DNA from: a virus | UHGV virus genome: UHGV-1372779 | DNA length: 64,000 nt | Reading direction: 5' to 3' (one strand) | In this document: positions 10,234 to 64,000 of the stretch, one piece after another | Position numbering within the stretch: position 1 is the first letter of the stretch | Layout of the letters: every line of letters begins with the position of its first letter | Translations under genes and position numbers: made by a program | The notes under the pieces: generated by a model | What the model saw: the letters and a program-made list of their open reading frames with translations, nothing else | Database searches by the model: none | What the model was told of the DNA's origin: nothing

Positions 10234-11314
10234 CGTTTAACCTTTATACTTTCACATAAAGACTGACTATATCATCACTGTTAATCTTCATTAACAGTGT
10301 CTTGCGCTTCGAGAACAGCTTTTTGCTGTGCAATAAACTCTTCTTTAGTAAAGTTATCTCTTATTTTATATAATAAAGATGGAACTTGTTCGATATATGG
10401 TTTTACAATTTCTATAAACTTTTTACAATCTTCTTCTGTGCTAGAGGCAATTGAAAAAGTGCCCTTTCCTTCTTTAAAAGGTCTAAATTTTATATTCCAG
10501 ACTTCTAAAAAGTATTGGATAATTATATTAATTGTAGGTTCATCAACACAAGTAGCTATTTTTATAGTATGTTGAATTGAACTTCTTTGTTTAGATGTAT
10601 TTACATTTATACACCCATCATCCATATACCAAATTGCAATCCCTAAAGGATTTAACCAATTTAGCAATCTTCTAGTAATAGTTTTCTTTGGAATATAAAT
10701 AGTTCTCCTTAATGCTTTAATAGTTGGATTTAAGGACATTTGCGAATATAAAACGTTCTTTCCTATATTGTAGCCGCATTTAGAAATATATTCCTTAATT
10801 CCATTATTTTTAATATTAAATTTGTTAAGAAGATCTACTTTCCATTGTAAAAACTCTCTCTGTGCTTCTGAATGAGAAAGTTTAAAAACGTAATTACTAG
10901 AAATTGTTCCATCTCCTAATAAAAGTCCTATTAATAGACTTTTTTGTTCTTTACTAAGTTTTTTAGTTATTTTTCGTGCCATATTACCTAATATTTTAAA
11001 TTAAACATTAGATAAAAGTCCCTACTCCCATAAAGGGATAGTCGATGAACTTTCATCCTTATAAATATAAAGATATAAGAAAATTTGTCAATTGACTAGT
11101 CTTATATCAAAATATTTATCTAGGATGCTTAGCTGCGGATTGTCCAATTTTAACCTTTTTTACTATACTGATAATAGTTAATTATCACCATTAAGTGTAT
11201 TTCTACCTTAATTTAGTAGGTTAAACTCTAAGGAGTTCCCCGCCAATTCACAAGATTTATTATAGTGACTACAATATTTAATTTGTCACCTAGCTAAACT
11301 TAAAAACTAGGTCA
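10234..11314 (-). mobile_element. Group I self-splicing intron of about 1081 nt carrying a LAGLIDADG homing-endonuclease ORF in the P8 region.
   Basis: Elements read on the minus strand:
- P-like 'aattggcgggg' at 11237-11249.
- Q-like 'acaatccgcagc' at 11132-11143.
- R 'gttcatcgactatcc' at 11035-11050.
- S 'gatatagtcagtc' at 10261-10273, with P7 formed by gacta/tagtc.
- P9 hairpin at 10242-10260.
- Internal guide sequence 'gtagtcact' at 11266-11274, pairing with the exon-1 end 'agtgactaT' at 11315-11323 (9 bp, closed by U:G at the splice site).
- P10 between 'atatt' and exon-2 'gatat'.
- The intron begins with the TGA that ends the upstream ORF. Its terminal G at 10234 precedes the first sense codon of the downstream open frame. 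Confidence 0.7.
10281..10982 (-). CDS. LAGLIDADG homing endonuclease with two motifs, encoded inside the intron.
   Basis: 'LLIGLLLGDGTIS' and 'IAIWYMDDGCIN' are the two LAGLIDADG motifs. The ORF sits between the intron R and S core elements. Confidence 0.8.
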   Translation of the reverse strand: MARKITKKLSKEQKSLLIGLLLGDGTISSNYVFKLSHSEAQREFLQWKVDLLNKFNIKNNGIKEYISKCGYNIGKNVLYSQMSLNPTIKALRRTIYIPKKTITRRLLNWLNPLGIAIWYMDDGCINVNTSKQRSSIQHTIKIATCVDEPTINIIIQYFLEVWNIKFRPFKEGKGTFSIASSTEEDCKKFIEIVKPYIEQVPSLLYKIRDNFTKEEFIAQQKAVLEAQDTVNED

Positions 11315-14300
11315 ATAGTCACTTCCCTGTAACCAAATTTGGTAATGTGATACATAAGCCTCATTGCTTTCAGCATCAGAGAATCCTACAACTTTCATAG
11401 TCATAATTGATTGGAAAGCCTGAGCTGGAATACGATTAGCTGTAACATTTAAAGCCTCCTTAAATGAAGTAAACATCTTTTCAGCTTTTCTATTTATATT
11501 ATTTCTAATAGATTGGTTATATCTACCTTTAACCTCTCTAACTAATTCTTCATTTTCTAAATTACTTAAATCTCCAAAGGAATTTAATAACTTAGTATCA
11601 TAAGTTCCAAAAAAGGTTAATAATGTATTTATATTATCAGGATTAAAATTATAGAATATTCCATTATAGTTTTGGTCTTTAGATACATCTAATAATCTAG
11701 TCATATTATTAGGATCAACTACTATAACTTCTTGCGGAATCTGTGATTTGGGATCTTTGTAAAACTTCAATCCATCTATTTTATATAATTTTCTTCCTGC
11801 TTCATCCATTCTCCAGATTTCTCCATCAATATTATCTTTAATAATATCTATCTCCTCTAATTCAGAAATATAATCATTCTTTGAAGAAGAATCATTAATT
11901 ATAACTTGAGCATTTGCTCCAGCTGGATTTAATAATAATGCATCTATATTGTTGTTATTCTTAATTTCCTCCTTAGCTGCATTATAGTTAGCTATAAGCT
12001 TTTCTCTAAAAAATCTGCCATTGCTATTTATTACATCTGGAATAGAATCCCCAGGTCTAAGGAAGAATTTAGTTTGATATATCTTAGATAGAACTACCTC
12101 TGCAGGATTTATTATTATATTCTCTATTTTAACCATTAATTCTTCTGGAGTATATTGAGACAACATCGTTCTATCAATTCTTTCTCCAGTACTAATATTA
12201 TATAAATTATCTTGATTTGCAGATATAATATCATTAATCCTAGGATCTAAAGAAGATAATTCATAAAATCCCTCATCCAATCTAGATAAAGACTTATTAA
12301 TTCTATTTTGCACCTCTAGTATTTGTTCATCAGAGCCTTTATTAGCTCTTAATTCAAAGATTGTTTTAACTAGTGGATTATCATAAATACTATATGTGTA
12401 ATCAATTCCTGGTATTCTGAATGTTACATTCATAGGAGCTAATTCCTTCCTAGAATCTTTTATTATAGTAAGAGGTTTATCAGAATTTTTATATTTCTGA
12501 TATAACTCATAGGTATTAATTTCTTCATCTTGACCTGATTCTTCATTAAACACCACATCTCCGAATTTTAGATCAGATGGATTTATTGTTGGATTCAGAT
12601 TCGGCGCAGAATCTTTAAAATTATCTACTGCACTTATTCTATCTAATCCTTCCCCAGTAGCTCTATATCCAGCCTTAGCAGCTATTAATTCTAAATCAAA
12701 TTCTGAATAAGTTCCATTTAAATTAATAGGGTTTCCATTAATATCAACAAATCCTTCTGTTCCATCAAAATGATAAAATTTCATAGAACCATAAGAAGGT
12801 TTCATTACAGCTCCCATACCAGAGAATGTTCTCTTAATACTATCAGAATTCATTTTGGATGTAAGCATTGTGATAAATTGATTATGAATACTTCCTGCAC
12901 TGAATGGAGTTTTAAAATTAAAATCAGCTGTATTAAATTCTGTATTTAAATTATTCTCAAATTCTTGAGCTATTTCATTTAAATATCCATTTAATAGTGC
13001 ATCAGAATCAGATCCAGTAGATAATGCTCTTAATAGAGATTTTGTCAGAGTTTTATATAATTTAGTCTTATTACCTAAAGATATCTCATTATATGCCTCA
13101 ACAGCTCTTGCATCATTCTGAGCTTCTAAATACTCTTTTAGTGTTAAATCAACAATACTTCCTAAAGCATTATAGGCTCTAGAAGCTAATTTTATTGTAT
13201 TACCATTAGCAGCCAATGTAGATATAATCTGAGTAGATTCAGTTACTTCTGAATTATCTGCATGGTGATCAGCATTCATTTGAATTCCAAAATATTGAGA
13301 ACCTATAGTGTAATAATTCAAATCTGAATCATCATATCTACTTGTGGCTGGATTAGTATTTCTAGCTCCAACTTTAAGTGCAGAACCATTGATTAAATAG
13401 TGAATATCACTATGCTTCATTGGTTGATAGATATAATTTTGATCTAATATTACCTTTAGATTTCCATTACTATCAAAGAAGTCTGATTTATTTTCAGATA
13501 ATTTATTTTCTTCTACATCATATATGTTAGATTGGAATGAAGCGTTTTCATTACCTATTACTTGTCTAATATTATTTAAGTCTTCCTTAGTTTTATAGAA
13601 TCCAGTAGAATTTATAAATTTGGCTACAGCTTTAACTGATGCTTCACTAGGTTCTAAAAATCTATTAACTGGATTTTCAGAGTTTAAAGAGAAACTTCTT
13701 TGTCCTCCTAATGCTTCCCATAATTTAAAATTGGTATCAATTAACACATTAGGTCTTTCTTTTATAAAACTGTTAGGAGCCTGAGTTCCATCTCTATTTA
13801 CATGAACCTCTTTTATAGTATATCTATTATTTCCCTCTGGAATTATGTCTAATATTTGACGATACTCACCTTCATCAGTATTAAAATAATAAATACTTTC
13901 CTTAAGAACCTGATCTAAAGATCTTAAATTTCCATCAAAATCTTGCATTAAATTAAGAACCGGAATAGGCCAAGCTCTGTCAGTCATTTTCTTTAATAGC
14001 TTAATTTTTTCTGGAGAATGTCTCATTACATTATTATCAATTGCAAATGAAGCACATTTAAATAATGAAGCAGAACCATGAATAGGATTTATGTCATATC
14101 CAAAGTTCTTTCTATTTTGTCCAGCTGAACTTGAGAACATTGAATTATTCTCTAATTCATTTTGCCAACCAGTACATTCCATAGAACCATCTAGGGGCTT
14201 AACTACATCTTCTTCTCCAGAAGGATTAAATACTGGTGCCTCAATATCTTTAATAACAGCACACCTAATTTCAGATCCAGTTCCTTCTAAAGATCCTTGA

Positions 14301-48448: not shown

Positions 48449-49600
48449 TTAGGTTGTTACAGTTACATCAACTGCTTTGAAGTTTCCATCTTCACCACTT
48501 ACAACTACTTGAGTTTCCCCTACTTCAACACCAGTGATAGTTTTATCATCAACAGTAGCTACTTTCTCATCAAGTGACTCTGTGTAGTACATACCACCAG
48601 CAGGATTTGTAGTAATGGTTAGAACGGCTGTATTACCTTTCTGTACAGTTACAGTTTCTGGAGAAACAGTTAAAGATTTAACTTCCAAATCTATATTATC
48701 AACAATAACATCAGCTGAGCTAAGCATTGCATCAAATTCTTCAACAAGATCATCATTTACCCACATAATGTGTTTAGTAATAGATACTAATTCTTCTCCT
48801 ACAGCTCCCATACCAGTAATATCTCTATGATGTCTATAATCTAATACATATTGAGTATAACTTGCTCCAGGTATTAGTCTAGTATCATCATTATCTTGAG
48901 AGAATATATCTGTTCTGTTGCTATTTTGGATTTGGATGTTTTTAAGCATTGTCCAATAAGTTCCAAAGCCTTCTTTACCATCAACTTTAGTATCAGCATC
49001 ATATTTAACTAATGTTCTCCAAACTGGCTCAACTGGATAATAAGTACCTAAAGCAGCAGTATTCCAGTTTACTAATTCTTGTACTTCTACATTATAGAAA
49101 TATTGGAATTCATCTTCACCAGAAAGAACAATAGTAGTTCCTCCATCTGTTTTTAATTTAAAGTTAATAACAAGATTATCATATAAGAAATCTTGATCTT
49201 TTAAGATCTCTACAAATTCTGCAGCTATTCCCTTAGCAGTATCATCTTTAGTGATGGTTAAGTTAGCTACAATAGGTCTTGCTTTAACTCTACTATTATA
49301 AGTAGAATAATCAGATCTAACTGAGCCTCTTCTTCTTACTTCTACCATTAATCTAATATTCTTTACTTCTCCAACCTGTGTAGGAATTATAGAATCAGGA
49401 ATAGTGATTTCGATAGAAGGTTTAATTGGTTGAGACGATGGGGTTTTATAGACAGTTCTATTTACAATATGGTTAGCTTCAAAAGTTCCATATCTATAGA
49501 TTCTAAAGCCACTCCCCTTTGGCAATTTTTCAAATTTTGGTCTGCCGCTATAAGCGTCGATCGCGGAATTAATTAATCGTTCGTTTACAAATTCAAACAT
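48449..49600 (-). CDS. Protein of 383 aa with a C-terminal bacterial Ig-like (Big_2) domain, a candidate head fibre or decoration protein.
   Basis: The C-terminal ~80 aa ('LTVSPETVTVQKGNTAVLTITTNP...GETQVVVSGEDGNFKAVDVTV') match the Big_2 pattern. Confidence 0.6.
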   Translation of the reverse strand: MFEFVNERLINSAIDAYSGRPKFEKLPKGSGFRIYRYGTFEANHIVNRTVYKTPSSQPIKPSIEITIPDSIIPTQVGEVKNIRLMVEVRRRGSVRSDYSTYNSRVKARPIVANLTITKDDTAKGIAAEFVEILKDQDFLYDNLVINFKLKTDGGTTIVLSGEDEFQYFYNVEVQELVNWNTAALGTYYPVEPVWRTLVKYDADTKVDGKEGFGTYWTMLKNIQIQNSNRTDIFSQDNDDTRLIPGASYTQYVLDYRHHRDITGMGAVGEELVSITKHIMWVNDDLVEEFDAMLSSADVIVDNIDLEVKSLTVSPETVTVQKGNTAVLTITTNPAGGMYYTESLDEKVATVDDKTITGVEVGETQVVVSGEDGNFKAVDVTVTT

Positions 49601-50683: not shown

Positions 50684-51610
50684 CTATTTATTTTTAGTTT
50701 TAGTAGCAGTGGCTGAAACAGTTTCTGCTTCTACTTCTGGAGCAGTTTTTTCAGCGGCTGAGGTTGTAGGATTGATGTCTTCTGCTGTAAATCCATCTTC
50801 TCCCATAGTAAGAGCTTCAGTTACTTCTTTAATAATTCTATCTGTTATTACTTTATTTTTAGGATCTTTGAAGAATCTTATACAGTCTTCCATAGTTCTA
50901 CCTATAACTGTGGTCTCATTATATATAAATAATCCACCCTTGTTTTGAAGAATATTTTTCTCTTTAGCTGTAATAAAGATAAGAGATAATTTCATGTCTG
51001 AGCCAGTATATAGGTTAATAATTTTCTCTGGATCTGTATTAGCTACATTTATAAGGAATTCTTCTATTTCTTCTCTCGTAGAAGTTTTTACAAAACATCC
51101 TAAGATCTTAGCTTTAACAGTTAATCCTGAAGCATTATCTCCATATATGTATGTTTTGGCCTTTACTTTTGTTCTTTCAAGCTGGTTTCTCTTCTTAGTC
51201 TCATCTACTATTCTTTCTACATAAAATAAAGAATTAGCAGGAGCAATATCTGAAGGCTCTTGAATTACTCTACCCTTTTCATCCAATTTACCTCTTGGAT
51301 CAAAAATTAATTCAGAAAATCTAATTGCTTCCCAATTAGCTTTTTGAATAGGATTAGTTAAATCAAAATCTGTTCCATTCTTTATTTCAAAACCATCAGT
51401 TTCTCTAATGAAATAATCAGCTTGATTATCATTTTTATCATAAATAATATCTCCTTTGGAATCTACTCTTCTTACACAAGAAGGGAATTCTCCTGTTAAA
51501 GGATTTCTTACTGGATAAATTTTAGCTCCAGCATGAGCAGGGCCGTGAAAACATCTTATATGTACATTTTCATTTAATTCATTTAAAATTTCAGCATTAT
51601 TCATAGTCAT
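50684..51610 (-). CDS. Hypothetical structural protein of 308 aa.
   Basis: ORF only. Confidence 0.5.
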   Translation of the reverse strand: MTMNNAEILNELNENVHIRCFHGPAHAGAKIYPVRNPLTGEFPSCVRRVDSKGDIIYDKNDNQADYFIRETDGFEIKNGTDFDLTNPIQKANWEAIRFSELIFDPRGKLDEKGRVIQEPSDIAPANSLFYVERIVDETKKRNQLERTKVKAKTYIYGDNASGLTVKAKILGCFVKTSTREEIEEFLINVANTDPEKIINLYTGSDMKLSLIFITAKEKNILQNKGGLFIYNETTVIGRTMEDCIRFFKDPKNKVITDRIIKEVTEALTMGEDGFTAEDINPTTSAAEKTAPEVEAETVSATATKTKNK

Positions 51611-51624
51611 TTTATTTAATAGTA

Positions 51625-51673
51625 TATAAATAAAAATCTGTAGAGAAGAATATGGTTATATTATCTCTACAGA
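51625..51673 (-). terminator. Strong Rho-independent terminator after the 296-aa ORF (candidate capsid exon).
   Basis: An 11-bp perfect stem (atctgtagaga/tctctacagat) is followed by TTTTATTTAT on the minus strand. Confidence 0.65.
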
Positions 51674-51687
51674 TTTATCTTAAATTT

Positions 51688-52578
51688 TTATTTTCTTCTT
51701 CTGTTTTGTTTAAATATTACAGATCTATAAGGAGCATATACGGTGATTCCAGAATATCCCCAATAGATCATCTTAGATCCTGCAACTGGAGTAGAAGCAG
51801 TACCTCCCTCAAGACCAGTTAGACCTCCAACACCTTTAACATCAGTTTTGATCATATCAGCTCCCTTGAATGTCCAAGACTCAATAGCTGGTTTACCATT
51901 AGCTAAATCTGGTGTTAGATCTAGTATAAATCCAAATGCTTCATCTGGATACTCAACATCTAAAGTTCTATCAGGCATGAAGGTAATAAAGTTACCTGCA
52001 TATTCATAAGATGTAAATGTAGCTCCAACTCTAACTCCAGGAACACTTTCACCTATTGATTTCTTAGTTCCAGAAACTTTAGAATACATTAAAGTATTAG
52101 AAGGATTCCACTTAGCAATTTCATTCATCAAGTTGTCATTAACTTGTCTCCACATTAGAGAGTTACAAACAACAGTGAAATCATTACCAGTCAAGTTATC
52201 AGTCTTACTTGTCATGAAGTTAATTGCTTCCTTAAAGTGAGTTACTAATAACTGATCAAATGTGATAACATAAGCAAATCTTTCGATTTGTGGTATAATA
52301 CCATCACCAATATAAATTGGTCTGTTAGTTTCTGGATCTGTAATAGTAGGTTTACCATTAACGTCTACATTGGATCTAGCAAATAGATCATGCTTACTTT
52401 TAACTTCTAAGAAGTTATCAATTAAGGTTTTCTCCATACTAGTCATGGTAAAGTATCTTTCACTTCCATGAGTTTCAGTATCAGAGATTTTTAAGAATAC
52501 ATCCTCATTAGCTAAATAAGCTTGAGAAGCATCAATATCATTTCTGTGTAGAGTCAGATAATTACGATGCGTCTCCAT
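51688..52578 (-). CDS. ORF of 296 aa, a candidate 3' exon of an intron-split major capsid protein gene.
   Basis: It follows the 3' end of group I intron 2. The frame is open 13 codons upstream of the ATG. A strong terminator lies downstream. Confidence 0.55.
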   Translation of the reverse strand: METHRNYLTLHRNDIDASQAYLANEDVFLKISDTETHGSERYFTMTSMEKTLIDNFLEVKSKHDLFARSNVDVNGKPTITDPETNRPIYIGDGIIPQIERFAYVITFDQLLVTHFKEAINFMTSKTDNLTGNDFTVVCNSLMWRQVNDNLMNEIAKWNPSNTLMYSKVSGTKKSIGESVPGVRVGATFTSYEYAGNFITFMPDRTLDVEYPDEAFGFILDLTPDLANGKPAIESWTFKGADMIKTDVKGVGGLTGLEGGTASTPVAGSKMIYWGYSGITVYAPYRSVIFKQNRRRK

Positions 52579-52593
52579 GTTTGATTGGTATTT

Positions 52594-53608
52594 CGTATCA
52601 TTTATGTTAGCTCTATATTACTATAGAGATCAGACTATATCTTAATCTTATTTAATTATACTATAAATACTTAAATATAAATCCTTTACAACTGTTTCTT
52701 TCTCCATTTAGAACTTTTTTAACATTTGCATATCCTGCTTTTCTGCAGTCTCTCAAACATTTAAAAGTTTCCAAAAGATTACCATCAATATCATACTTAC
52801 CAATTGGAATATTCTCATATTTATGATTGGTTTTATTTCCAATTCTTTCTCCAGTATATTGTTTTTTCTTAAACTTCTTCATAAAAGGAAGTTTTTCATA
52901 AGAAAATTGATAACCATGAAATTGATGTCCTTGTTTGATGCTTCTAGGAAGATGCCCAGCACTAACATTTAAGTACTTTGCTGCATCTGTTACAGTTTCA
53001 AATTCTTTAACAAATTCTCCTTCTAGATCATACATATAAACTTTTACCTTTAAAATCTCAGGGCATCCACCTTCACCTCCGAGCTTTATATTATATGTAT
53101 CTTCTCTTTTTATATATTCTTCTGTAACTAACTCAGATTCTAATTTATAAGCCTCTTCTTTATTATCGAATATATTCAGAGTAATTCTTTTAAATTTGTC
53201 TATGCCATATTTATTAACTGCACATTGAAAAGGAGTTTTACTCTTTTTATAAGTTGCAGGTCTATTAATAAACACACCATTTCCTAAATATCCATCAAAT
53301 TTATCAGGATTTAACGTCTCATGAACTCCTATATATTGTTTATTGTTCACCAGACAAATTGTCATATACACTAAGTATTTTTTCATATTTTATATAATTA
53401 ATAAGATTTTCCCCATTTCGAACTTATGAATCTAAGTCCTACTCCTTTCGGATAGTCGTTGAACGTTCTCTAGCACTTCTAAAATAGCTTGTGTACTCTA
53501 GAGCTTCGCTGCTGATTGTCTTTAGATATACCAATTCTAAAGAGTTTCCAGCAATTAAAGGAATTTTTCTTACAACTTCCTCTGTTAAGCTACCAATGAA
53601 CAGATGTA
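52594..53608 (-). mobile_element. Second group I intron, related to the first, carrying a GIY-YIG homing endonuclease. The 3' boundary is uncertain: candidate omega-G positions are 52599, 52594 and 52565.
   Basis: Elements read on the minus strand:
- P-like 'aattgctgg'.
- Q-like 'acaatcagcagc'. The P4 pairing gcTg/cAgc covaries against gcGg/cCgc in intron 1.
- R 'gttcaacgactatcc' at 53450-53464.
- S 'aagatatagtc' at 52633-52643.
- P3 formed by tccttt/aaagga.
- P9 'ctctata-gtaa-tatagag' with a GNRA loop at 52611-52628.
- A guide-like 'Gttgtaag' in the position analogous to intron 1, pairing with exon 'cttacaaT' (8 bp plus U:G), which puts the 5' splice site after 53609. Confidence 0.6.
52661..53386 (-). 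CDS. GIY-YIG homing endonuclease of 241 aa, encoded inside the intron.
   Basis: 'YLVYMTICLVNNKQYIGV' followed by a downstream '...E...YNIKLGG' gives the GIY-YIG pattern. It lies between the R and S elements. Confidence 0.65.
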   Translation of the reverse strand: MKKYLVYMTICLVNNKQYIGVHETLNPDKFDGYLGNGVFINRPATYKKSKTPFQCAVNKYGIDKFKRITLNIFDNKEEAYKLESELVTEEYIKREDTYNIKLGGEGGCPEILKVKVYMYDLEGEFVKEFETVTDAAKYLNVSAGHLPRSIKQGHQFHGYQFSYEKLPFMKKFKKKQYTGERIGNKTNHKYENIPIGKYDIDGNLLETFKCLRDCRKAGYANVKKVLNGERNSCKGFIFKYL

Positions 53609-54172
53609 TATTGTAAGGGAGCTACTTTTTAACCCCTGGTCGTGATAATCATAAGGATGAGCATTAGATAAGAAGTGAGTAGTCATTCCTGGCTTACATG
53701 CACTTAAATCTAAGTGTTGTTTTCCATCATTGTCTACAAGAACACAAGTGTATTCAAAATATTGATTAGTTCTCCAAAGAGGTCTTCTTGTTACATATAA
53801 TTGTTGATGAGAACCATCTATAACAAAGATGTCATGTTTTTCATAATATCTTTCTTTTAAAGGTATAATTATCTCGGTATTTCCAACACCGTCTCCAATA
53901 GGTTCTCCTGCAATTTCAATTCTCTTAATGAAATTAACATTAACATCCCATTCTATACAGAATGCATTAATGCTCTTAGTTCCTTTCTTTGGAATATCTT
54001 GGTAAACTAAATTTCCTAATTTATCTACCAATGTAGAAACGGTATGATTTTTGCAAAGGGAAGCAGCTAATCCTACTCTATGTTTAGCTCTTCCTAAAAA
54101 TTGTGAAAAGTCATGATATGTCCGTGATCCAGACACATTGGCTCTATTACTGATGTATTCAGCTACAAACAT
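53585..54172 (-). CDS. ORF of 195 aa, a candidate 5' exon of the split capsid gene. Its last 7 codons and stop are probably intron sequence.
   Basis: It is immediately downstream of the scaffold-like acidic gene. The intron P1 pairing places the splice site at 53609. Confidence 0.55.
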   Translation of the reverse strand: MFVAEYISNRANVSGSRTYHDFSQFLGRAKHRVGLAASLCKNHTVSTLVDKLGNLVYQDIPKKGTKSINAFCIEWDVNVNFIKRIEIAGEPIGDGVGNTEIIIPLKERYYEKHDIFVIDGSHQQLYVTRRPLWRTNQYFEYTCVLVDNDGKQHLDLSACKPGMTTHFLSNAHPYDYHDQGLKSSSLTIYICSLVA

Positions 54173-54203
54173 TTAATTTAAATTTTAAAGTTTAACTAAT
54201 ATT

Positions 54204-55316
54204 TTATTGTTTAAGTTTAAACAACATACTTAGATCATCCTCATCAGATAGTACTGATGTGCTTTTAACAGTTACATTTGATTTTGGACTAGGTTTGTTG
54301 TTTCCCTTAGGGTTGGATGGATTTTTTAAATTTTGTATTTCTTTATCTTTTTTAGATAATTCACTCATATAAGCAGTGTGAAGATTTTGAAGTAGCTCAT
54401 CACCATGTGCCATGAAGAAGGCCATCTTAAATAACTTTTCAGGGTTATTTAAATCCATTGCCAATTTACTAGCCCCATTTAAGGTAGGTTTAAACGCATA
54501 ATCATAAGTAGAAGTTAAATCTCTATCTTCAAGATCTACACCAGAGAAGTTTTTATATTTATTGCCAGCTTCTTTAAAAGAATTTAAGAATTGCTGTTGT
54601 TCTTCTGTGGTAACTTGTTGATTATTTTGATTATTTTGTTCTTCAAGTTGTTGCTGTTCTAATTCTTTATAAATCTCTCTAAGTCTTTCAACTTTTTTAG
54701 TGAACAGATTAGGATTTTCTTTAGCTCTTTCTACTTCATCATGAATTTCTTCATCTGTCCAATCTTCATATCTCTCTTTAAGATCAAAAGCTAGAATCTC
54801 TTCATCAGAGAGATTATCTACACTGAATTGAACATTATTATCAAGATATTCTTGAATACCTTGTTGTTTATAGTAGTTAATCATTTCCTCTTGAGATAAC
54901 TCATGCTCTCTCATAAATGATATTAACTGTATTTCATCTTTACTTAAATCATAATCTTCATTTGGGGAAGTATTTAAAATTTGTAGCTTCTCCTCATTGG
55001 TCAATTCATCAAATGATTTGGTAACTATTGCTCCAAAATCATTTTCTATTTTAATATTATTAGGATCTTTAAATCCTCTTGCCTTTAGTGCCTCAGTAAT
55101 TAAATCAAATTGCTCTGTGGCTACAGGATTAGATGGATCGGGATTGTTTCCATCTTGGTTCTGTGGATCTGGTTCAGTTGGAGGTTCTGGATTAGAATTA
55201 TTTCCTTCTTGTGAACCATCTGGAAGATTTGTCAGTAATGAAGGATCATTTCCATCAGGATTTGGTTCTCCTTTACCTTCTTCTAATCCTAATAATAAAT
55301 CTAAATCATCATTCAT
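54204..55316 (-). CDS. Acidic, Gln- and Glu-rich coiled-coil protein of 370 aa, scaffold-like.
   Basis: Composition read from the translation ('EQQQLEEQNNQNNQQVTTEEQQQ', a very acidic N-terminus). It sits just upstream of the capsid candidate. Confidence 0.5.
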   Translation of the reverse strand: MNDDLDLLLGLEEGKGEPNPDGNDPSLLTNLPDGSQEGNNSNPEPPTEPDPQNQDGNNPDPSNPVATEQFDLITEALKARGFKDPNNIKIENDFGAIVTKSFDELTNEEKLQILNTSPNEDYDLSKDEIQLISFMREHELSQEEMINYYKQQGIQEYLDNNVQFSVDNLSDEEILAFDLKERYEDWTDEEIHDEVERAKENPNLFTKKVERLREIYKELEQQQLEEQNNQNNQQVTTEEQQQFLNSFKEAGNKYKNFSGVDLEDRDLTSTYDYAFKPTLNGASKLAMDLNNPEKLFKMAFFMAHGDELLQNLHTAYMSELSKKDKEIQNLKNPSNPKGNNKPSPKSNVTVKSTSVLSDEDDLSMLFKLKQ

Positions 55317-56566: not shown

Positions 56567-59500
56567 TTAATCATCACCCATTCTTCCTTTGATTAGTCTC
56601 CACCCTTCTGATGTATAGATAAATCCGGCTGCTCTTTGTTCTATTAGCCAGAACCATCCATTCATAAGCATTATCTCTATTCTATGAGATCCATAAGTGT
56701 TGGTATTATATATATAACATACTTGTCCTATTCTTCCTCCATTTAAAGAAACATTTCTAGTAGTATCATTAGAATTTATTTCTATGTAAGATATACCATC
56801 CAAATTTAATGGATAGGGATTATCTGAATCTCCAGACGTTATAGTAACAGAAATAGCTTTTGTTAAAGATAGGTCTTTAATTATAGTTTTTCCACTCAAA
56901 ATACATTCATTACTAACTTGGAGGTTATTAAAAACTCCTACAAGACTCCCATTTAGCCTTCCAAAGAATGAATCTTGGTTATACCAATAATTACTAACAG
57001 TATCTTTAGTTCCAAATACTAATCCGAAGATAGACTGTGAAGAAATAGAAGTTTTTACTTTACCCATAGCTAACCCATCTCTGTATCTATCTCCTTCTGA
57101 ACTTCTATCTGGGTCAAAGATTTCATAACTAAAATCTGATAATAGTATATCTCCTATATAATCTCCTACATTAATTTGAAATGCTCCATTTATCACATCC
57201 CCATTCACAAATAATTTACCTCCTTGAGTAACAACAAATGGTGCAATCGGAGTATCACTTGTTCCATTTAGGTTATTCAATACTGTGTTCATAGCTGACT
57301 CTAAAGTTCCTCCTGCCCAGTATCTAACTAGATCATCTCCTGATAAACTACCTTGATCTTTAGATGCAGTAATTCCTGATTTAGGAGCAAGCATGGTAAC
57401 ATCTCCATCTGAATTCCAATACAAATTATTATAGGCTAATAATCCACTACCATCATTATTAAATCTCCAAGGGTTATTATTATCATCACTCATTCTTAAC
57501 CCGTACATAGTTCCATCTGGGAGAAATTTAACATGAGGCCTCTCTACAGTAGTTACTACTCCATCAAGGGAAGTTGATTCTACTAATTCTATTCCTCCTG
57601 TAATACCCTCTTCACTAAATCTCCACTTAGTTATTATATCCTCTCCTGATATGGCTTTTATTTCTATTTTAGAACTTCTCATATAGTCTCCTTCTGGAAG
57701 TTTGCTACCTATATATATGTCAGCTTCTAATATTCTGGGATTTATATATCCATTTTTTATGATCATTCTATTAGAGGTAGCCCAAGATACCATATCTATG
57801 TATCCAAGATATCCTATTTTAGATGCAAAGTCTTCTCTTAACCCAGTTTGAATAGTGTTAAATCTTTCCCAATCAGAGACATTTCCAGGCTTAGAAGTTA
57901 TTCCTTCTTCTATTTCTTCTTTAGTTAATTCTATAGAAGAATTACATACTAATATTTCATAGTCATAATTCATCCAGAAATCTCCAACTGCATAGGGTCC
58001 TTTAGGCACATTCTTAGAAAAATATAGAGTTCCATTTGAACCTAGTATTTTTAAGCTATTACATATGCTAATTTGAAGAGGAACTAAGTCTACTTCTATG
58101 TATGTGGGGTCTTCTGGGTCTTTAGGACTAGGATAAGTAGTCACAACACTCCCATCAATATAACAAGTTGTAGATCCATTTTTAGTATAGTTATAAACAT
58201 TCAAACTAGCTCCTCCAGAAGGAATTTCCATAACTTTTTCTATATACATAGGAGGTCTGTCTGGAAAATTATCACTATATGTGGGATCCATTTTTTTATT
58301 AGGATCAGTATCATAGTTATAGTCTTCACTTCTCATATCTGGAACAACGTATTCTGGATTTTTGATAATTCTCTTTTCGCCTGGGCTATAGTCTCCATTA
58401 TAAAAAGCTAAACAGTCTGAATCTTCATTAGTTATGAATTCTTTTAATAAATGCGCCTTAGAAATGTTTATAGAATTTGCTTCTATAAAATTTCCAACAT
58501 CTACTAAATTTGATTTATTATGTCCATATACAGATGATCTTCCGATTATATAAGAATTATTACTATATAATCCACACTCATTCTTTAAACTTAATCCCCT
58601 ATAAATAGAGTTAGATAAATCTCCAAATTTACATTTAGAATCTTCTGAATATTCTGTATTATTTACTTCTTCTAAAATTTCTACTATAGGTTTATTACTG
58701 TCAAAAGCTGAAAGATAAATTATATTTTGTCTATTTATATCTACTACATTACCAAATTGACACAGTTCATCCCCAACTTCTATCATTCCACTTATATCTT
58801 CTATTACAGTAGGAGATTCATCTTCCTCATCCTCATCTTCTGAAGGTATGTCTTCATCTTCATCTGGATTAGGATACTTACTAAATTGATCTATATCAAT
58901 ATATACTTTACTATCAATTACATCCCTAATCCAAACTATATAATCTTTAGATCTAGGGTATTTTAAAGATTTGCATCTTACTAGATCATTCTTAGTAAAT
59001 GGAAGAAATTCTTCATTAAATGTTAGTTCATATACATCTACATTAACTAGATTACCTGTTTTTATATAGTTTTCATCTACCTCTTCGAACTCCATCTCTT
59101 CTATAATAGAGATTCCTTTAATTATAGCACTGCCCTGAGACATTACTGTGGCCCCTCTTATGGATCTAGCTTTTTCTAGTGTAAGTTCTGGAATATTTAA
59201 ATCATCTCTTACTAATATTGAATCTATCTCTAGAGTATATTTTCCTCCATCTTCATATATACTATATCCAGACCCATCAATACCAGGAGAGAAGTCATAG
59301 GATTCTACATTAGAAGTAGTAATTCCTCCATTTACGGAGGTTTCTATTCTATTATCAACATAAAGGTCTCCTGATATATTAGTATTTACATTTATATTTA
59401 AATTTTCTTCTGATAACTCTATTTTTGGAGATTCTTCATTATTATAGTATATTCCTAAAGAATCTTCAACTAGCTTTAATTTAAATAGTATAGAGTTATT

Positions 59501-60109
59501 ATATAAAGAGACTAGGTCTTCTCCTATTATATTTATTTTAGAATTGAGTATAGGATTTTTGGAGTCCCCAAAAGTTACATTTCCTTTAACAACTCCTCCA
59601 TCTTTTAAATTCAAATATATTTCTTCAAAACCATTAGCGGTTTTTAGAAAATGTCTTCCTTCGCTTATAATAAAGTAAGGATAGTTAATTGGGAGTTCTA
59701 CAGAATCATCAGTTTTATAATTAAGTATCTGCTTTAAATTACCTAATACTAGTTTGATTTGATCTTCAGTTAAGCTTTGTTTATTATTATAGGACAAAAA
59801 TCCTTCAATGCTTCCACCTTCTCCCTGAATAGATAGATTTATTAAAGAATTTCCATATTTTATATAGAATTGTCCTTCATCTTTTGTAAAATATATACCA
59901 TCAGACTTAATATCTGAGGCAGAGGTGACTTCATTGATTATTGGAGGGAAAGTAACATCTATTTTACCATTTTTAATTAGGTTCAGGAAAGAATTCCCGA
60001 ACCTAACTTTAACATTACCTTTTCCATTTAATATAACATCAGTAGTGCCATCGCCTACTATAGTATATATTTTATCTAATATTCTTTCATGTTTTACTAA
60101 CTCTCCCAT
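56567..60109 (-). CDS. Large structural protein of 1180 aa, a candidate tail fibre or spike, with an acidic 'DEDEDIPSEDEDEEDE' insert.
   Basis: Long ORF beginning at an ATG (60107-60109). Confidence 0.6.
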   Translation of the reverse strand: MGELVKHERILDKIYTIVGDGTTDVILNGKGNVKVRFGNSFLNLIKNGKIDVTFPPIINEVTSASDIKSDGIYFTKDEGQFYIKYGNSLINLSIQGEGGSIEGFLSYNNKQSLTEDQIKLVLGNLKQILNYKTDDSVELPINYPYFIISEGRHFLKTANGFEEIYLNLKDGGVVKGNVTFGDSKNPILNSKINIIGEDLVSLYNNSILFKLKLVEDSLGIYYNNEESPKIELSEENLNINVNTNISGDLYVDNRIETSVNGGITTSNVESYDFSPGIDGSGYSIYEDGGKYTLEIDSILVRDDLNIPELTLEKARSIRGATVMSQGSAIIKGISIIEEMEFEEVDENYIKTGNLVNVDVYELTFNEEFLPFTKNDLVRCKSLKYPRSKDYIVWIRDVIDSKVYIDIDQFSKYPNPDEDEDIPSEDEDEEDESPTVIEDISGMIEVGDELCQFGNVVDINRQNIIYLSAFDSNKPIVEILEEVNNTEYSEDSKCKFGDLSNSIYRGLSLKNECGLYSNNSYIIGRSSVYGHNKSNLVDVGNFIEANSINISKAHLLKEFITNEDSDCLAFYNGDYSPGEKRIIKNPEYVVPDMRSEDYNYDTDPNKKMDPTYSDNFPDRPPMYIEKVMEIPSGGASLNVYNYTKNGSTTCYIDGSVVTTYPSPKDPEDPTYIEVDLVPLQISICNSLKILGSNGTLYFSKNVPKGPYAVGDFWMNYDYEILVCNSSIELTKEEIEEGITSKPGNVSDWERFNTIQTGLREDFASKIGYLGYIDMVSWATSNRMIIKNGYINPRILEADIYIGSKLPEGDYMRSSKIEIKAISGEDIITKWRFSEEGITGGIELVESTSLDGVVTTVERPHVKFLPDGTMYGLRMSDDNNNPWRFNNDGSGLLAYNNLYWNSDGDVTMLAPKSGITASKDQGSLSGDDLVRYWAGGTLESAMNTVLNNLNGTSDTPIAPFVVTQGGKLFVNGDVINGAFQINVGDYIGDILLSDFSYEIFDPDRSSEGDRYRDGLAMGKVKTSISSQSIFGLVFGTKDTVSNYWYNQDSFFGRLNGSLVGVFNNLQVSNECILSGKTIIKDLSLTKAISVTITSGDSDNPYPLNLDGISYIEINSNDTTRNVSLNGGRIGQVCYIYNTNTYGSHRIEIMLMNGWFWLIEQRAAGFIYTSEGWRLIKGRMGDD

Positions 60110-60448: not shown

Positions 60449-60811
60449 TTAATTTATTCCTAATTCTGCACAATCAGAATCAACTATAGATTTAATTTCT
60501 GCTCTTATATTCAAGAAATCTAAATATTTCTGAATATAAGATTCATCTAATAACCCCTCTTTCGCAGAGTTATAATCATTGATTAATTTCTTTTCATCTT
60601 CGTTAGTCCAAATGGACTCAATTGCTGCTTTTAAAATAGTATCACTATCTGGTTGTCCATAGAATACAATCTCATTACATTTATATTGAGTTGCAGGCTC
60701 TTCACCTTCTTCTCTCTCAACTGTAATTTGTTCTATGCCCCATCTATAGAAATACTTATTATTAACTATTTTTTCTAATTTTTCAGGCTGAAAGTCATAA
60801 TATGCGTTCAT
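60449..60811 (-). CDS. Acidic hypothetical protein of 120 aa immediately downstream of the RT. It is not Avd-like.
   Basis: ORF only. It is acidic rather than basic. Confidence 0.45.
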   Translation of the reverse strand: MNAYYDFQPEKLEKIVNNKYFYRWGIEQITVEREEGEEPATQYKCNEIVFYGQPDSDTILKAAIESIWTNEDEKKLINDYNSAKEGLLDESYIQKYLDFLNIRAEIKSIVDSDCAELGIN

Positions 60812-61808
60812 AATCTTGTCTAATTAAATGTTTCGGATTATAAATTTTGTTTAATAAATTCTGTGAATTACAATGTTTAGCCCAACTCCTATAACTAGAC
60901 ATTATCATTTTATATTGTCTGTAGCATAAGTATCTTTTATTAGTTCTAGCAGCTAATTTAGCAAACTTCTTCTTTGTCTTTTTTCTTAACAAAGTATGAG
61001 TATGCCTAAATACATATCCTACAAAGTCTATTCCTCTTATGGCAACAGGAAAGACTTGATAATTTTGTTTAACAGTTAATTTTAATGTTGCAAGATATTC
61101 CTTGATTTCTATTAATAAGTTATGAAGAAATTCTTTATTAGAATGTAATATAACTATATCATCGGCATATCTGTAATAAAATTTAACTCCTTTGACTTCT
61201 TTCAACCAATGGTCAAAATATGCTAAGAATAAATTAGCAAAGAATTGTGATAGATAGTTACCTATAGGAACCCCAGGTGCAGAGTCTATTATCTCATCTA
61301 ATAGAGATAATAGTTTTTTATCCTTTATCTTTTTCCTGATTATCTTCTTCAATATATCATGATCTATTGAAGGATAGAATTTTTTAATATCAAGTTTAAG
61401 ACAATATTTAGTTTCCTCTACATTTTGTCTAAGTTCTTTTTTTAATTTTCTAACTATTCTATGTATTCCTCTGTTTTTAATACAACTATATGTATCAGCA
61501 GTGAATACAGAAACCCAAATTGGCTCCATGATATTCATTATAGCATGGTGTACTATTCTATCTGGATAATATGGAAGCCTAAAGATTTCTCTTTCTTTAG
61601 GCTCATATATTTTAAATATTTTATATTCTGAGGTTTTATATGTACCAGATTTTAATTGTTCATGAAGTTTAAGAATATTTTCTTTTCTATTCTTATCATG
61701 TTTCATTACTCCAAAACTTCTGGTTTTGCCCTTTCTAGCTTTAGAATCAGCTAACTCTAGGTTTTCTATACTAATTATTTGCTCAAATAAATTATTGATT
61801 CTTTTCAT
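60795..61808 (-). CDS. Reverse transcriptase of the diversity-generating retroelement, 337 aa.
   Basis: The RT motif-4 DGR signature 'IGNYLSQ' and the catalytic 'YADD' ('YRYADDIVIL') are both present. The gene is adjacent to, and co-oriented with, the TR/VR pair. Confidence 0.85.
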   Translation of the reverse strand: MKRINNLFEQIISIENLELADSKARKGKTRSFGVMKHDKNRKENILKLHEQLKSGTYKTSEYKIFKIYEPKEREIFRLPYYPDRIVHHAIMNIMEPIWVSVFTADTYSCIKNRGIHRIVRKLKKELRQNVEETKYCLKLDIKKFYPSIDHDILKKIIRKKIKDKKLLSLLDEIIDSAPGVPIGNYLSQFFANLFLAYFDHWLKEVKGVKFYYRYADDIVILHSNKEFLHNLLIEIKEYLATLKLTVKQNYQVFPVAIRGIDFVGYVFRHTHTLLRKKTKKKFAKLAARTNKRYLCYRQYKMIMSSYRSWAKHCNSQNLLNKIYNPKHLIRQDYERIL

Positions 61809-61977
61809 ATTTTTGTTTTCTAATGGGAACTTTCAAATTGCATTTGCATTGCAATTACTACACTATGGTATTTTTGCACTGTTGCACTTTTACTAATACC
61901 CTCTGAAGGGTTTATTTTTTGCCAAGAGGCAAGGCCTTCACAAGTATATATTAGTTTTTGATATTCTTGAAAACACT

Positions 61978-62083
61978 AAGCTGGCCGCTGACATTGGCAT
62001 TGGCATTAGACACGCTGTTGTTCGAATTACAGTAGCTGAAACTGGAGTTGGCACTGTTATTACAAGAGCTACCAAGCAGCAAC
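61978..62083 (-). repeat. DGR template repeat (TR), intergenic.
   Basis: It is 106 bp long, shares about 82% identity with the VR, lies in the 320-bp gap between the RT and the target, and its coding strand is rich in AAY (Asn) codons. Confidence 0.8.
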
Positions 62084-62129
62084 AAGGTTGTGAACAGCCT
62101 ATATTATATTGTTTTTAACTCATAATATT

Positions 62130-64000
62130 CTAGATTAGGTAACAAAGCCGGCCGCCGACATCGGCATAGGCAGCAGACACGCCGCGGTGCGAATAACAGT
62201 AGCCGAAACCGGAGAGGGCACCGCTATAACAAGAGCCACCAAGCAGCAACGTACGCAAGCTACTTGAGCTTATAGATGTATAAAAATAATCACACCAATA
62301 AGTAGTAGAACCTCCACCATTATCAGAAGGAGCAAATTCACCATTCTCTCCAAAGATTAATTTAGTCACATAACCATCTTTCCTTGGGACATTTCCAACT
62401 TTAGTGAATCCTTCTAAGGTATCTCCGAATTTAGTTTTATCACTAGTTGTATAGAACTCACTTGTGCCTCCATCAGCATCAGTTTTAATATCAAATATAG
62501 CTCCTTCTACATTAGTCCAAATATGACCAAAAGGATTCTCAATTCCTCTATATCTACAACAAGCTAATGTAGTAGGAGTATCAACCTTATAATCATCTGG
62601 AAGATTTACAATAACTTCTCCAGATCCAGATGCCAATGAGTTAGATGCTCCACATTTTAACATTGGATAATAGCTATTATAAGCACTCCAATCAGAAGAA
62701 GCTAATGTAGTAGCTCCATTTCCTAAACCACCTTGCTTATATCCTTCAGCAGTTAGTTCTGAATTAACAGCAGCCTGGCAGTTTCTGTTAGCATATTCTA
62801 CATAATATAACCAGAATACAGTCTTCCAAGATTCATAATCCATTTCATTCCAATTATCCCCTCTATTTCTAGCTCTAGTTCTCATAGTAGCTCTAGTCAT
62901 ATATGTAGCACATTTTCCTAATTGAGATTTAGATAAAGTATCCCAATCAGCTTGATTGTTTCCACCTCTATATTGTTCTGTTTCATTACATACAGAGGCT
63001 AGTTTATTATTAGTTCTATCTAAAGCAGCTTCATAAGCTCCTACATAGACCTTAGGAACTTTAGTAAATCCAGTACATTTACCTTCTGATAAGTAACATC
63101 TTCTAATATTACCGTCTTCTTCAAATTTTCTGTAATGTTCTGGTATTTCTATCATAACTTGTCCATCAGTTCCATCTAGATTAGATGCTTCTCCTGTGAT
63201 TTTCTTACTCCAATCATTAGGATTTAAGTAATAATTTACACTTCCATCATCATTTAAAAGACAAGCTTTCATTTTAGATTGAATAGGCAGAGATTTATGT
63301 AATGACATATCTCCTATTCTTGTACAAGTTGGATCAGATACAGTAGTATCCCATTCTATACCATAGACTTTGTTTAGATAAATCTCTCCTTCTGAGTTAA
63401 ATGAGAAATCAGAGGATAATTTAACTGCTCCTAGAGTAGATTCTGTTGCAGGTCTAAGGTTATCATTAACTGTATCTTCTATATTATCTAACATTGATTT
63501 ATAATTATTCGAAAAGTCATTGGTGGAAAGAGATTTACCTTCGACTTTATCTACTTTATTTCCTAGTTTAGTTGTTAATTCAGCATTGGTGTCTAGTTCA
63601 TCTAATTTAGTTTTTAGATCATTAGTGAAGTCATTAGTTGATAATGATTTACCATCAATCTTGTCCACTTTGTTAGATATAGTTGCTACTAGATTCTTCT
63701 CAGCTGTTGTATAATTGTTATCAGAAAGAACCTTAGAACCGTCTTTATCGACCTTAGTTTCTAAATCAGATTCAATAGTTGCAATCTTCGCAACTTGTTC
63801 TTTTTCTGCTGTAGTATAATTATTATCTGATAACACTTTTGATCCATCCTTATCTACTTTTGTGTCTAATTCAGTATTAATTGTACTGATATTTTCATTG
63901 ATTGTGTCTATATCACCTTCTATAGTTGAGATGTTTCCCTCTATAGTTGTAATATCAGATTCAATAGTAGGAATTTTGTTTACATTTGTTTTATCTCCAT
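62130..64000 (-). CDS. DGR target gene, a tail-fibre-like protein with tandem ~20-aa repeats and a C-terminal VR (C-type-lectin-type 'GGSCYSG...GYCYSHRG' end). Partial: the frame is open to the window edge.
   Basis: The codon at 63836 that the track annotated as the start is GTG. The frame continues '..TIEGNISTIEGDIDTINENISTINTELDTKVDKDGSKVLSDNNYTTAEK' to position 64000. It contains the VR. Confidence 0.75.
   Translation of the reverse strand, partial: GDKTNVNKIPTIESDITTIEGNISTIEGDIDTINENISTINTELDTKVDKDGSKVLSDNNYTTAEKEQVAKIATIESDLETKVDKDGSKVLSDNNYTTAEKNLVATISNKVDKIDGKSLSTNDFTNDLKTKLDELDTNAELTTKLGNKVDKVEGKSLSTNDFSNNYKSMLDNIEDTVNDNLRPATESTLGAVKLSSDFSFNSEGEIYLNKVYGIEWDTTVSDPTCTRIGDMSLHKSLPIQSKMKACLLNDDGSVNYYLNPNDWSKKITGEASNLDGTDGQVMIEIPEHYRKFEEDGNIRRCYLSEGKCTGFTKVPKVYVGAYEAALDRTNNKLASVCNETEQYRGGNNQADWDTLSKSQLGKCATYMTRATMRTRARNRGDNWNEMDYESWKTVFWLYYVEYANRNCQAAVNSELTAEGYKQGGLGNGATTLASSDWSAYNSYYPMLKCGASNSLASGSGEVIVNLPDDYKVDTPTTLACCRYRGIENPFGHIWTNVEGAIFDIKTDADGGTSEFYTTSDKTKFGDTLEGFTKVGNVPRKDGYVTKLIFGENGEFAPSDNGGGSTTYWCDYFYTSISSSSLRTLLLGGSCYSGALSGFGYCYSHRGVSAAYADVGGRLCYLI
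62145..62250 (-). repeat. DGR variable repeat (VR) at the 3' end of the target gene.
   Basis: All ~19 mismatches to the TR fall at TR adenines on the coding strand (T on plus). On plus they read T to C, A or G. The VR carries a GC-richer IMH-like end (gtcggcggccggc, against TR gtcagcggccagc). Confidence 0.8.

Follow-up and report, generated by a model that had tools for sequence, protein, structure and literature searches.

We analyzed the capsid gene region (positions 51,688 to 54,172) of a 64,000-nucleotide (nt) stretch of the virus genome UHGV-1372779, hereafter the window, and found that its major capsid protein (MCP) gene is very probably interrupted by a group I intron carrying a GIY-YIG/NUMOD open reading frame (ORF) and spliced at 53632/52599. 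All genes in the 48-60 kb part of the window lie on the minus strand, and so do all features of the intron and its host gene given below. An earlier note, made from the letters of the window alone, had proposed a group I intron with a GIY-YIG endonuclease between a 195-amino-acid (aa) ORF (54172..53585) and a 296-aa ORF (52578..51688), which it took for the two halves of a capsid gene. The first proposal is borne out by Rfam matches in pieces, covariation and Pfam matches, and the second by the Pfam family Crass_capsid and by homologue alignment, while the splice sites that had been suggested required correction.

The bounds of the insertion were fixed to the base by comparison with intron-less relatives, as the earlier note had recommended. 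Blastn of window positions 54250..51600 against the intron-less relative L001 gave two colinear blocks, 54207..53634 (L001 279-850) and 52598..51609 (L001 853-1843), with 53631..52599 left over. The MCP is colinear across the site in L001 and in a second intron-less relative, L012 (a 175.9-kb IMG/VR contig with an 87% identical MCP). Because the two blocks abut within L001 (positions 850 and 853, with no gap in L001) and L012 has the same junction, the intron is bounded at 53631..52599 (1033 nt), exactly the DNA missing from both relatives. At the junction L001 reads CAAGGTT|ATACAAAA (in a longer read CAAGGTT|ATACAAAATATC) and the window CAGGGGT|ATACGAAA (CAGGGGT|ATACGAAATACC); the intron-less allele of L001 and L012 across the site is CAAGGTTATACAAAATATC. 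The 5' splice site lies after U53632 and the 3' splice site after G52599, the omega-G and last base of an intron that starts UAAAAAGUAGCUCCC and finishes ...CUAACAUAAAUG. An exon ending in U53632 and an insert ending in G52599 fit what group I chemistry requires, and the 5' U·G and 3' G flank precisely the inserted DNA. The same site and gene order recur in at least nine intron-carrying contigs from different samples.

Exon 1 (53632..54172, 541 nt) holds codons 1-180 and the first base of codon 181, and by blastn and protein alignment ends ...CAC GAC CAG GGG U. Exon 2 (51688..52598, 911 nt) begins AU ACG AAA UAC CAA; its first two bases complete codon 181 (Tyr), which the intron interrupts after the first base, and codons 182-483 and the stop follow. 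The 195-aa ORF consists of exon 1 and the start of the intron, and the ATG of the 296-aa ORF at 52578 is the internal Met188. In-silico excision restores the host frame to a 1452-nt coding sequence (541 + 911) for 483 aa, with a predicted ligated junction ...CCAGGGGU joined to AUACGAAAUACC... (also written GATTATCACGACCAGGGGT-ATACGAAATACCAATC) and the protein sequence ...HDQG-Y-TKYQSNMETHRNY... around it. This product is identical to the intron-less homologue P0001 at 421 of 482 positions, with a single C-terminal gap column, and its junction motif G-Y-x-K-Y-Q-S-N is uninterrupted in more than 100 homologues of 470-476 aa. The uninterrupted homologues all read ...H-D/E-x-G-Y-x-K-Y-Q-S-N-x-E-x-H-R..., while the window ORF departs from them after ...HDQG (LKSSSLTI...), and the conserved TKYQSNMETHRNY is found again ahead of the 296-aa ORF start. 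The intron interrupts the most conserved motif of the family, in which G180, K183 and S186 never vary and Y184, Q185 and N187 hardly do. A location within a highly conserved motif is typical of homing-endonuclease targets.

The identity of the interrupted gene follows from profile, homologue and structure comparisons. In the 496-position profile of the Pfam family Crass_capsid (PF23898), the 296-aa ORF covers positions 200-381 and therefore starts in the middle of a capsid protein. Two trial fusions of the ORFs scored 39.6-42.5 bits against a cut-off of 27, the match covering profile positions 103-380 across the junction; these scans were of trial fusions, not of the corrected 483-aa product, and the homologues carry PF23898. 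A protein search with a 479-aa fusion returned P0001 (482 aa, 85% identity over its full length), the more than 100 homologues of 470-476 aa at 38-47% identity, and P0003-P0005, of 295-297 aa. The earlier note had held that independent full-length homologues of the 195- and 296-aa products would speak against a split gene; P0003-P0005 seem to be such proteins, but are exon-2 gene calls in relatives with the same intron and gene order. The AlphaFold model of P0001 (57 homologues) has a well-predicted core, and a Foldseek search with it against the PDB placed the phicrAss001 capsid protein first (7QOH_D, E 2.1e-19, template modelling score 0.51; 7QOF_A, E 3.6e-18), in an alignment of about 500 columns that covers both exons, with many other HK97-fold capsids next. 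The HK97 fold anticipated by the earlier note is in this way matched over the full length of the intron-less homologue. PDB sequence searches with the MCP and with a 59-sequence MCP profile found nothing, and tblastn against GenBank phages found MCPs at most 45% identical, annotated crAss-like 'major head proteins' being about 22% identical. Judged from the sequence comparisons and the model, the 195-aa and 296-aa ORFs are the halves of one crAss-type HK97-fold MCP. The phage is crAss-like (Crassvirales-type), an identity supported by the CrAss_Ring_1 and CrAss_Ring_2 genes that lie downstream in relatives.

The intervening RNA has the anatomy of a group I ribozyme. In a local Rfam scan of 52300..53900, of the kind the earlier note had suggested, RF00028 (Intron_gpI) was matched in two colinear minus-strand pieces with the ORF between them, one at 53572..53408 (42.2 bits, E 5.7e-9, model positions 42-158) and the other at 52645..52613 (27.5 bits, E 1.4e-4, model positions 219-251). 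The fold is IA2-like, with P1-P9, the extra P7.1-GUA-P7.2, and the ORF in the P8 loop. The 5' part of the catalytic core (53409..53563), drawn from RNAalifold on 39 phage introns with the Rfam alignment in agreement, comprises P3 (UUCCUU 53563..53558 with GGGGAA 53414..53409), P4 (UGCUGG 53553..53548 with UCAGCA 53515..53510), P5 (53543..53536 with 53526..53519), P6 (GCG 53509..53507 with CGU 53465..53463), P6a (53503..53498 with 53473..53468), J6/7 and the 5' strand of P7 (GACUA 53457..53453), P7.1 (UCC-GAAA-GGA 53452..53443) and, after a GUA linker, the 7-bp hairpin P7.2 (53439..53420). The 3' part (52611..52652) was placed by the second Rfam piece and by compensatory changes in P8 and P9. 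Here P8 pairs AAUCUUAUU (53408..53400) with AAUAAGAUU (52652..52644) around the ORF, the 3' strand of P7 is UAGUC (52637..52633), and P9 is CUCUAUA-GUAA-UAUAGAG (52628..52611), 12 nt from the terminal G. A first P6b helix was trimmed, as it overlapped with P6a. The four core elements recognized in the earlier note all lie where it had put them: the P-like AATTGCTGG (53556..53548), the Q-like AATCAGCAGC (53517..53508), R, GTTCAACGACTATCC (53464..53450), and S, AAGATATAGTC (52643..52633); so does its 7-bp P9 with a GUAA loop.

Subgroup IA2 is recognized by P7.1 and P7.2 hairpins linked by G-U-A between P7 and P3' (PMC3428280). The window intron has P7.1, GUA and the 7-bp P7.2, and both helices covary in the family. 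A different P3', AAAGGAGU (an 8-bp match to AUUCCUUU), was tried and rejected; in 39 family members these positions form the P7.1 hairpin and GUA linker, and the covarying P3' is GGGGAA.

Upstream of the core, P1 (53618..53636) pairs the exon bases GGGGU (53636..53632) and U53631 with the guide AGCUCC (53623..53618) across the loop AAAAAGU. The splice-site wobble U53632·G53622 lies inside this 6-bp helix, which is formed in both the minimum free energy (MFE) structure and the centroid of RNAfold. P2 (53569..53617), also formed by RNAfold, pairs CUUACAAU (53617..53610) with GUUGUAAG (53576..53569) and encloses an inner helix, P2a (CUGUU 53603..53599 with AACAG 53586..53582). In L002-type relatives the outer 6 bp of P2 are kept, and the inner helix is seemingly rebuilt by eye, a reading that the aligned count does not support.

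Covariation was examined at two depths. From the stretches that carry the family we extracted 158 distinct core segments and submitted a non-redundant subset to RNAalifold, which recovered P3, P4, P5, P6, P7.1 and P7.2, the window sequence fitting each. In the resulting alignment of 39 phage introns (A4), 95.2% of cells are paired, against 74.2% in shuffles and 30-50% with slid partners; changes on both sides occur in 17 of 28 pairs, and the covariation score is 0.572 against 0.166 for shuffles and at most 0.156 for slid controls, with the reservation that the consensus structure was derived from the same alignment that scored it. P3 has double changes in five of its six pairs, with four or five pair types at most positions, whereas P7 is invariant across the family. 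The compensatory change in P4 that the earlier note had seen against a first intron of the window (U-A versus G-C) holds in the wider family as well, with UA in 36 members, GC in 2 and AU in 1. The second alignment (A5) holds close relatives with the ORF removed: the L002 type (85% identical), L008 and the L005 type (67% identical). It contains 14 double-change pairs in all, and 94.8% of all cells pair; P3, P5, P6a, P7.2, P8 and P9 have double changes with at least 95% of cells paired. P8 carries a compensatory U-A to C-G change, and P9 has two compensatory positions that keep it paired, its variants being CUCUAUA-GUAA-UAUAGAG, CUAUAUA-GCAA-UAUAUAG and CUCUAUG-GUGA-CAUAGAG.

A covariance model of the family core (R1, 96 positions), applied to the entire window without filters, gave two matches at E < 0.01, the remaining hits reaching 15 bits at most. 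The capsid intron scored 81 bits, a value to be read with the window sequence having been in the training set. The other match is the first intron of the window (31.5 bits, E 6.4e-7, at 11150..11023), in line with the relation between the two introns that the earlier note had seen. That element spans about 11320..10240 on the minus strand, in a gap between 2138-aa and 1008-aa ORFs that probably belong to one giant gene. The gap holds a 233-aa ORF (10982..10281) with an LLLGDG motif, which by eye appears LAGLIDADG-like.

Beyond the window, tracts of P4-P5 and J6/7-P7 are present in more than 200 stretches of IMG/VR viral contigs (15-19-nt tracts GTTCAACGACTATCC and AATTGCTGGAAACTCTTTA; loci L014-L241), a number that is a lower bound. 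This IA2-like intron family is therefore very widespread in uncultured phages. Several loci among those listed contain three to six core copies, L165 having six and L234 four.

The intron ORF (241 aa, 53386..52661, in the P8 loop) has GIY-YIG and NUMOD modules. Pfam matches were obtained to NUMOD1 (E 2.8e-12, 47 bits against a cut-off of 22.8), I-HmuI_NUMOD-like (E 4.5e-7, 29.8 bits against 27) and GIY-YIG (PF01541; E 1.8e-5, 25.4 bits against 22.6), and PHROG 314, 'homing endonuclease', was matched at E 2e-28. This order, an N-terminal GIY-YIG catalytic domain followed by NUMOD-type DNA-binding modules, resembles the I-TevI and Seg-type enzymes of T4-like phages. A 150-bp stretch of the ORF is 72% identical in DNA to seg/homing endonuclease genes of T4-like phages, and apart from this match the search of GenBank phage DNA found no close relative; a PDB sequence search with the endonuclease matched no solved structure. 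By analogy with these enzymes, the protein would be an active endonuclease, with the intron-less capsid gene as its target.

Our model suggests that the intron RNA would fold into P1-P9 plus the extra P7.1-GUA-P7.2, with the guide AGCUCC pairing with the terminal exon bases GGGGU so that the U·G wobble marks the 5' splice site. This is where an exogenous guanosine, bound in P7, would attack, and the freed 3'-OH of exon 1 would then attack after the terminal G52599, joining ...CAGGGGU to AUACGAAA... in a ligated message that would encode the continuous 483-aa HK97-fold capsid protein. In co-infection, we hypothesize that the endonuclease would cut intron-less capsid alleles and repair would copy the intron in (homing), as I-TevI-type enzymes do.

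Several observations weigh against a spliced MCP gene of this structure. Self-splicing and homing as such are what we infer from the anatomy of the element and knowledge of its family. Rfam scans of the entire window yielded no intron match at either gathering or E-value thresholds, and the two RF00028 pieces, which total 69.7 bits, are each below the gathering score of 50; with the match split by the ORF, default thresholds miss the intron. Covariation supports neither P1 nor P10, where same-site relatives are identical. Since P1 is invariant among same-site relatives, the evidence for it is that of boundaries and thermodynamics only, and the possible P10 (G53625-U53624-A53623 with exon-2 positions +2 to +4, UAC, 52597..52595) is 3 bp long. 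The MFE fold favours AUUCCUUU/AAAGGAGU over the comparative P3 and P7.1, and the 5' half reaches a thermodynamic z-score of only -1.68. Finally, the structural model is that of an 85%-identical homologue, not of the spliced sequence, and its mean pLDDT (predicted local distance difference test) is 66.

We weighed three other explanations. The capsid might be made without splicing, as two polypeptides of 195 and 296 aa that assemble non-covalently, the endonuclease gene being free-standing and the ribozyme-like sequence a relic. Both pieces are indeed open with ATG starts, and gene callers list them separately in several contigs. However, the ribozyme core is intact, and compensatory changes that separate copies of 85% and 67% identity show selection for pairing; the 5' U·G and the 3' G bracket exactly the inserted DNA. 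The last 15 residues of the 195-aa ORF are moreover encoded by intron P1-P2, and translation from the "start" of the 296-aa ORF would begin at an internal Met seven residues into the conserved motif and lose TKYQSN. We consider two separate polypeptides very improbable. Slightly less credible still is a decayed, splicing-defective intron in a capsid pseudogene of a defective or mis-assembled phage genome: the window is of metagenomic origin and its contig measures 129.6 kb against 176-183 kb in relatives, but pairing is kept in every core helix (94.8% of cells in A5), the reading frame is unbroken in both exons and in the endonuclease gene, the exons share 85-87% identity with intact homologues, and many samples show the same arrangement.

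The third explanation is the junction put forward in the earlier note, which had taken cttacaaT/Gttgtaag (53617..53610 with 53576..53569) for P1, with the 5' site after 53610 and a span of 52565..53609. Although "after 53609" is what its text gives, the pairing it proposed runs to T53610 and its span opens the intron at 53609; the site at 53632 lies 22 nt upstream of 53610, and the intron spans 53631..52599. For the 3' site it favoured G52565, giving a 479-aa fusion (...SSLTI-NYLTLHRND), and named G52599 as an alternative that would leave two separate proteins. The favoured site fails and the alternative stands, given that intron-less alleles resume at 52598, although with the correct 5' site it yields an in-frame fusion instead of two proteins. 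The 8-bp pairing with a terminal U·G does exist, the 52565 junction is in frame, and Crass_capsid still matches the 479-aa fusion. Yet that helix lies entirely in DNA absent from intron-less alleles, in the P2 position between P1 and P3, and the fusion loses the conserved YTKYQSNMETHR motif, inserts LKSSSLTI and has a 4-residue gap against P0001; either predicted product is contradicted by the intron-less alleles and homologues. Three trial junctions (53610|52564, 53610|52612 and the out-of-frame 53610|52598) were likewise rejected against homologues, alternative in-frame junctions leaving gaps of 4-12 residues at the site relative to P0001. With intron-less allele DNA running on through 53632/52598, not 53610/52564, the sequence of these alleles already refutes the earlier junction model, to which we attach next to no weight.

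The alleles also differ beside the splice sites. Comparing window positions 53633..53638 and 52585..52598 with L001, L012 and L243, we observed that intron-containing alleles read CAG GGG U|AU ACx AAA UAC and intron-less ones CAA GGU/GGG UAU ACA AAA UAU. The differences adjoining the site are synonymous, and the intron-containing form strengthens the P1 pairing (GGGG with CUCC). These differences may reflect co-conversion tracts or endonuclease resistance.

Other insertions were seen in the same gene of relatives. Two contigs (L005:1033-2219 and L006:1524-2710) carry a related intron one nucleotide upstream, at AAGGU|UACAC (GGU|UAC versus GGGGU|AUAC). Its core is about 67% identical to that of the window intron and its 3' end 93%, and it carries a 277-aa GIY-YIG-like ORF; its P1-P2 is unrelated to that of the window, with a guide pairing CGCC of its own and a U·G wobble in the centroid fold. 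Two further insertions lie elsewhere in the capsid gene. One follows about residue 276 (L242:1244-2575); it contains a 362-aa ORF and matches Rfam Intron_gpI at L242:1282-1423 with 51 bits. The other follows about residue 390 (L243:5177-6385), with a 317-aa NUMOD ORF, and gave no Rfam match at E <= 0.001. We tentatively suggest, with rather less than even confidence, that the G-Y-T-K-Y-Q-S-N motif could be a contested homing site, at which related introns one nucleotide apart would reflect the retargeting of a group I intron by a swap of its guide module.

Downstream of the capsid gene, a terminator-like stem-loop that the earlier note had pointed out is present by eye (51634..51676), with a 13-bp stem AAAUCUGUAGAGA/UCUCUACAGAUUU, a 17-nt loop and then UUAUUU. 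The capsid transcript probably terminates at this stem-loop. It is absent from the output of the consensus terminator scan, presumably because that scan allows loops of 8 nt at most. The structural block around the capsid gene, on the same strand (48449..49600 and 56567..60109), contains an 1180-aa ORF and a 383-aa protein whose C-terminus carries a Big_2 Ig-like domain. Farther away, also on the minus strand, lies a complete diversity-generating retroelement (60795..63836). It comprises a 568-aa target ORF (63836..62130) with a C-terminal variable repeat (62250..62142), a 109-nt template repeat (62083..61975) that is 82% identical, with 20 of 20 mismatches at template adenines, an RNA matching Rfam RT-17 (61936..61840, 39.4 bits against a gathering score of 40.4), and a 337-aa reverse transcriptase with a YADD motif (61808..60795).

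Among known elements, the window intron is closest in anatomy to the phage IA2 introns of T4 td, Twort orf142 and the DNA polymerase genes of Bacillus and T7-like phages (RF00028). It shares with them P1-P9 and P7.1-GUA-P7.2, the conserved tracts AAUUGCUGG/AAUCAGCAGC (P4) and GUUCAACGACUA / AGAUAUAGUC (J6/7-P7), the U·G at the 5' splice site and the terminal G. It differs in occupying a capsid gene, not a nucleotide-metabolism or polymerase gene. Its ORF is in the P8 loop, unlike that of T4 td, which is reportedly in P6.

Introns in crAss-like phages have been described before. Yutin et al. (2021, Nat Commun 12:1044; PMC7886860) reported group I introns in the Delta and Zeta groups of crAss-like phages, where they interrupt core genes, the MCP gene among them. 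A Zeta genome had up to 14 introns, in one case the MCP gene was broken into five pieces, and the transcription gene block contained an intron ORF of the LAGLIDADG type. The window intron shares with these the host gene family (crAss-type MCP) and the kind of element, with an endonuclease ORF, and the first intron of the window resembles the LAGLIDADG intron ORF of the transcription block. Zeta genomes measure 145-192 kb in the same source, and relatives of the window MCP lie on contigs of 163-190 kb, within that range of size. The introns of that study were identified through endonuclease protein domains, and the passages considered here contain neither splice sites nor RNA structures. An intron in a crAss-like MCP gene is consequently of a kind already reported, and ours is a further example, base-precise and resolved in structure.

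For annotation, our results mean that join(54172..53632, 52598..51688) on the minus strand is one 483-aa major capsid protein, and that the exon-2 calls P0003-P0005 should be joined in the same way, these entries being artefacts of intron-blind gene callers. The splitting of the Rfam match by the ORF helps to explain why intron-rich crAss-like genomes are difficult to annotate. While the overall picture is unchanged, the intron adds to the abundance of introns reported in large crAss-like phages.

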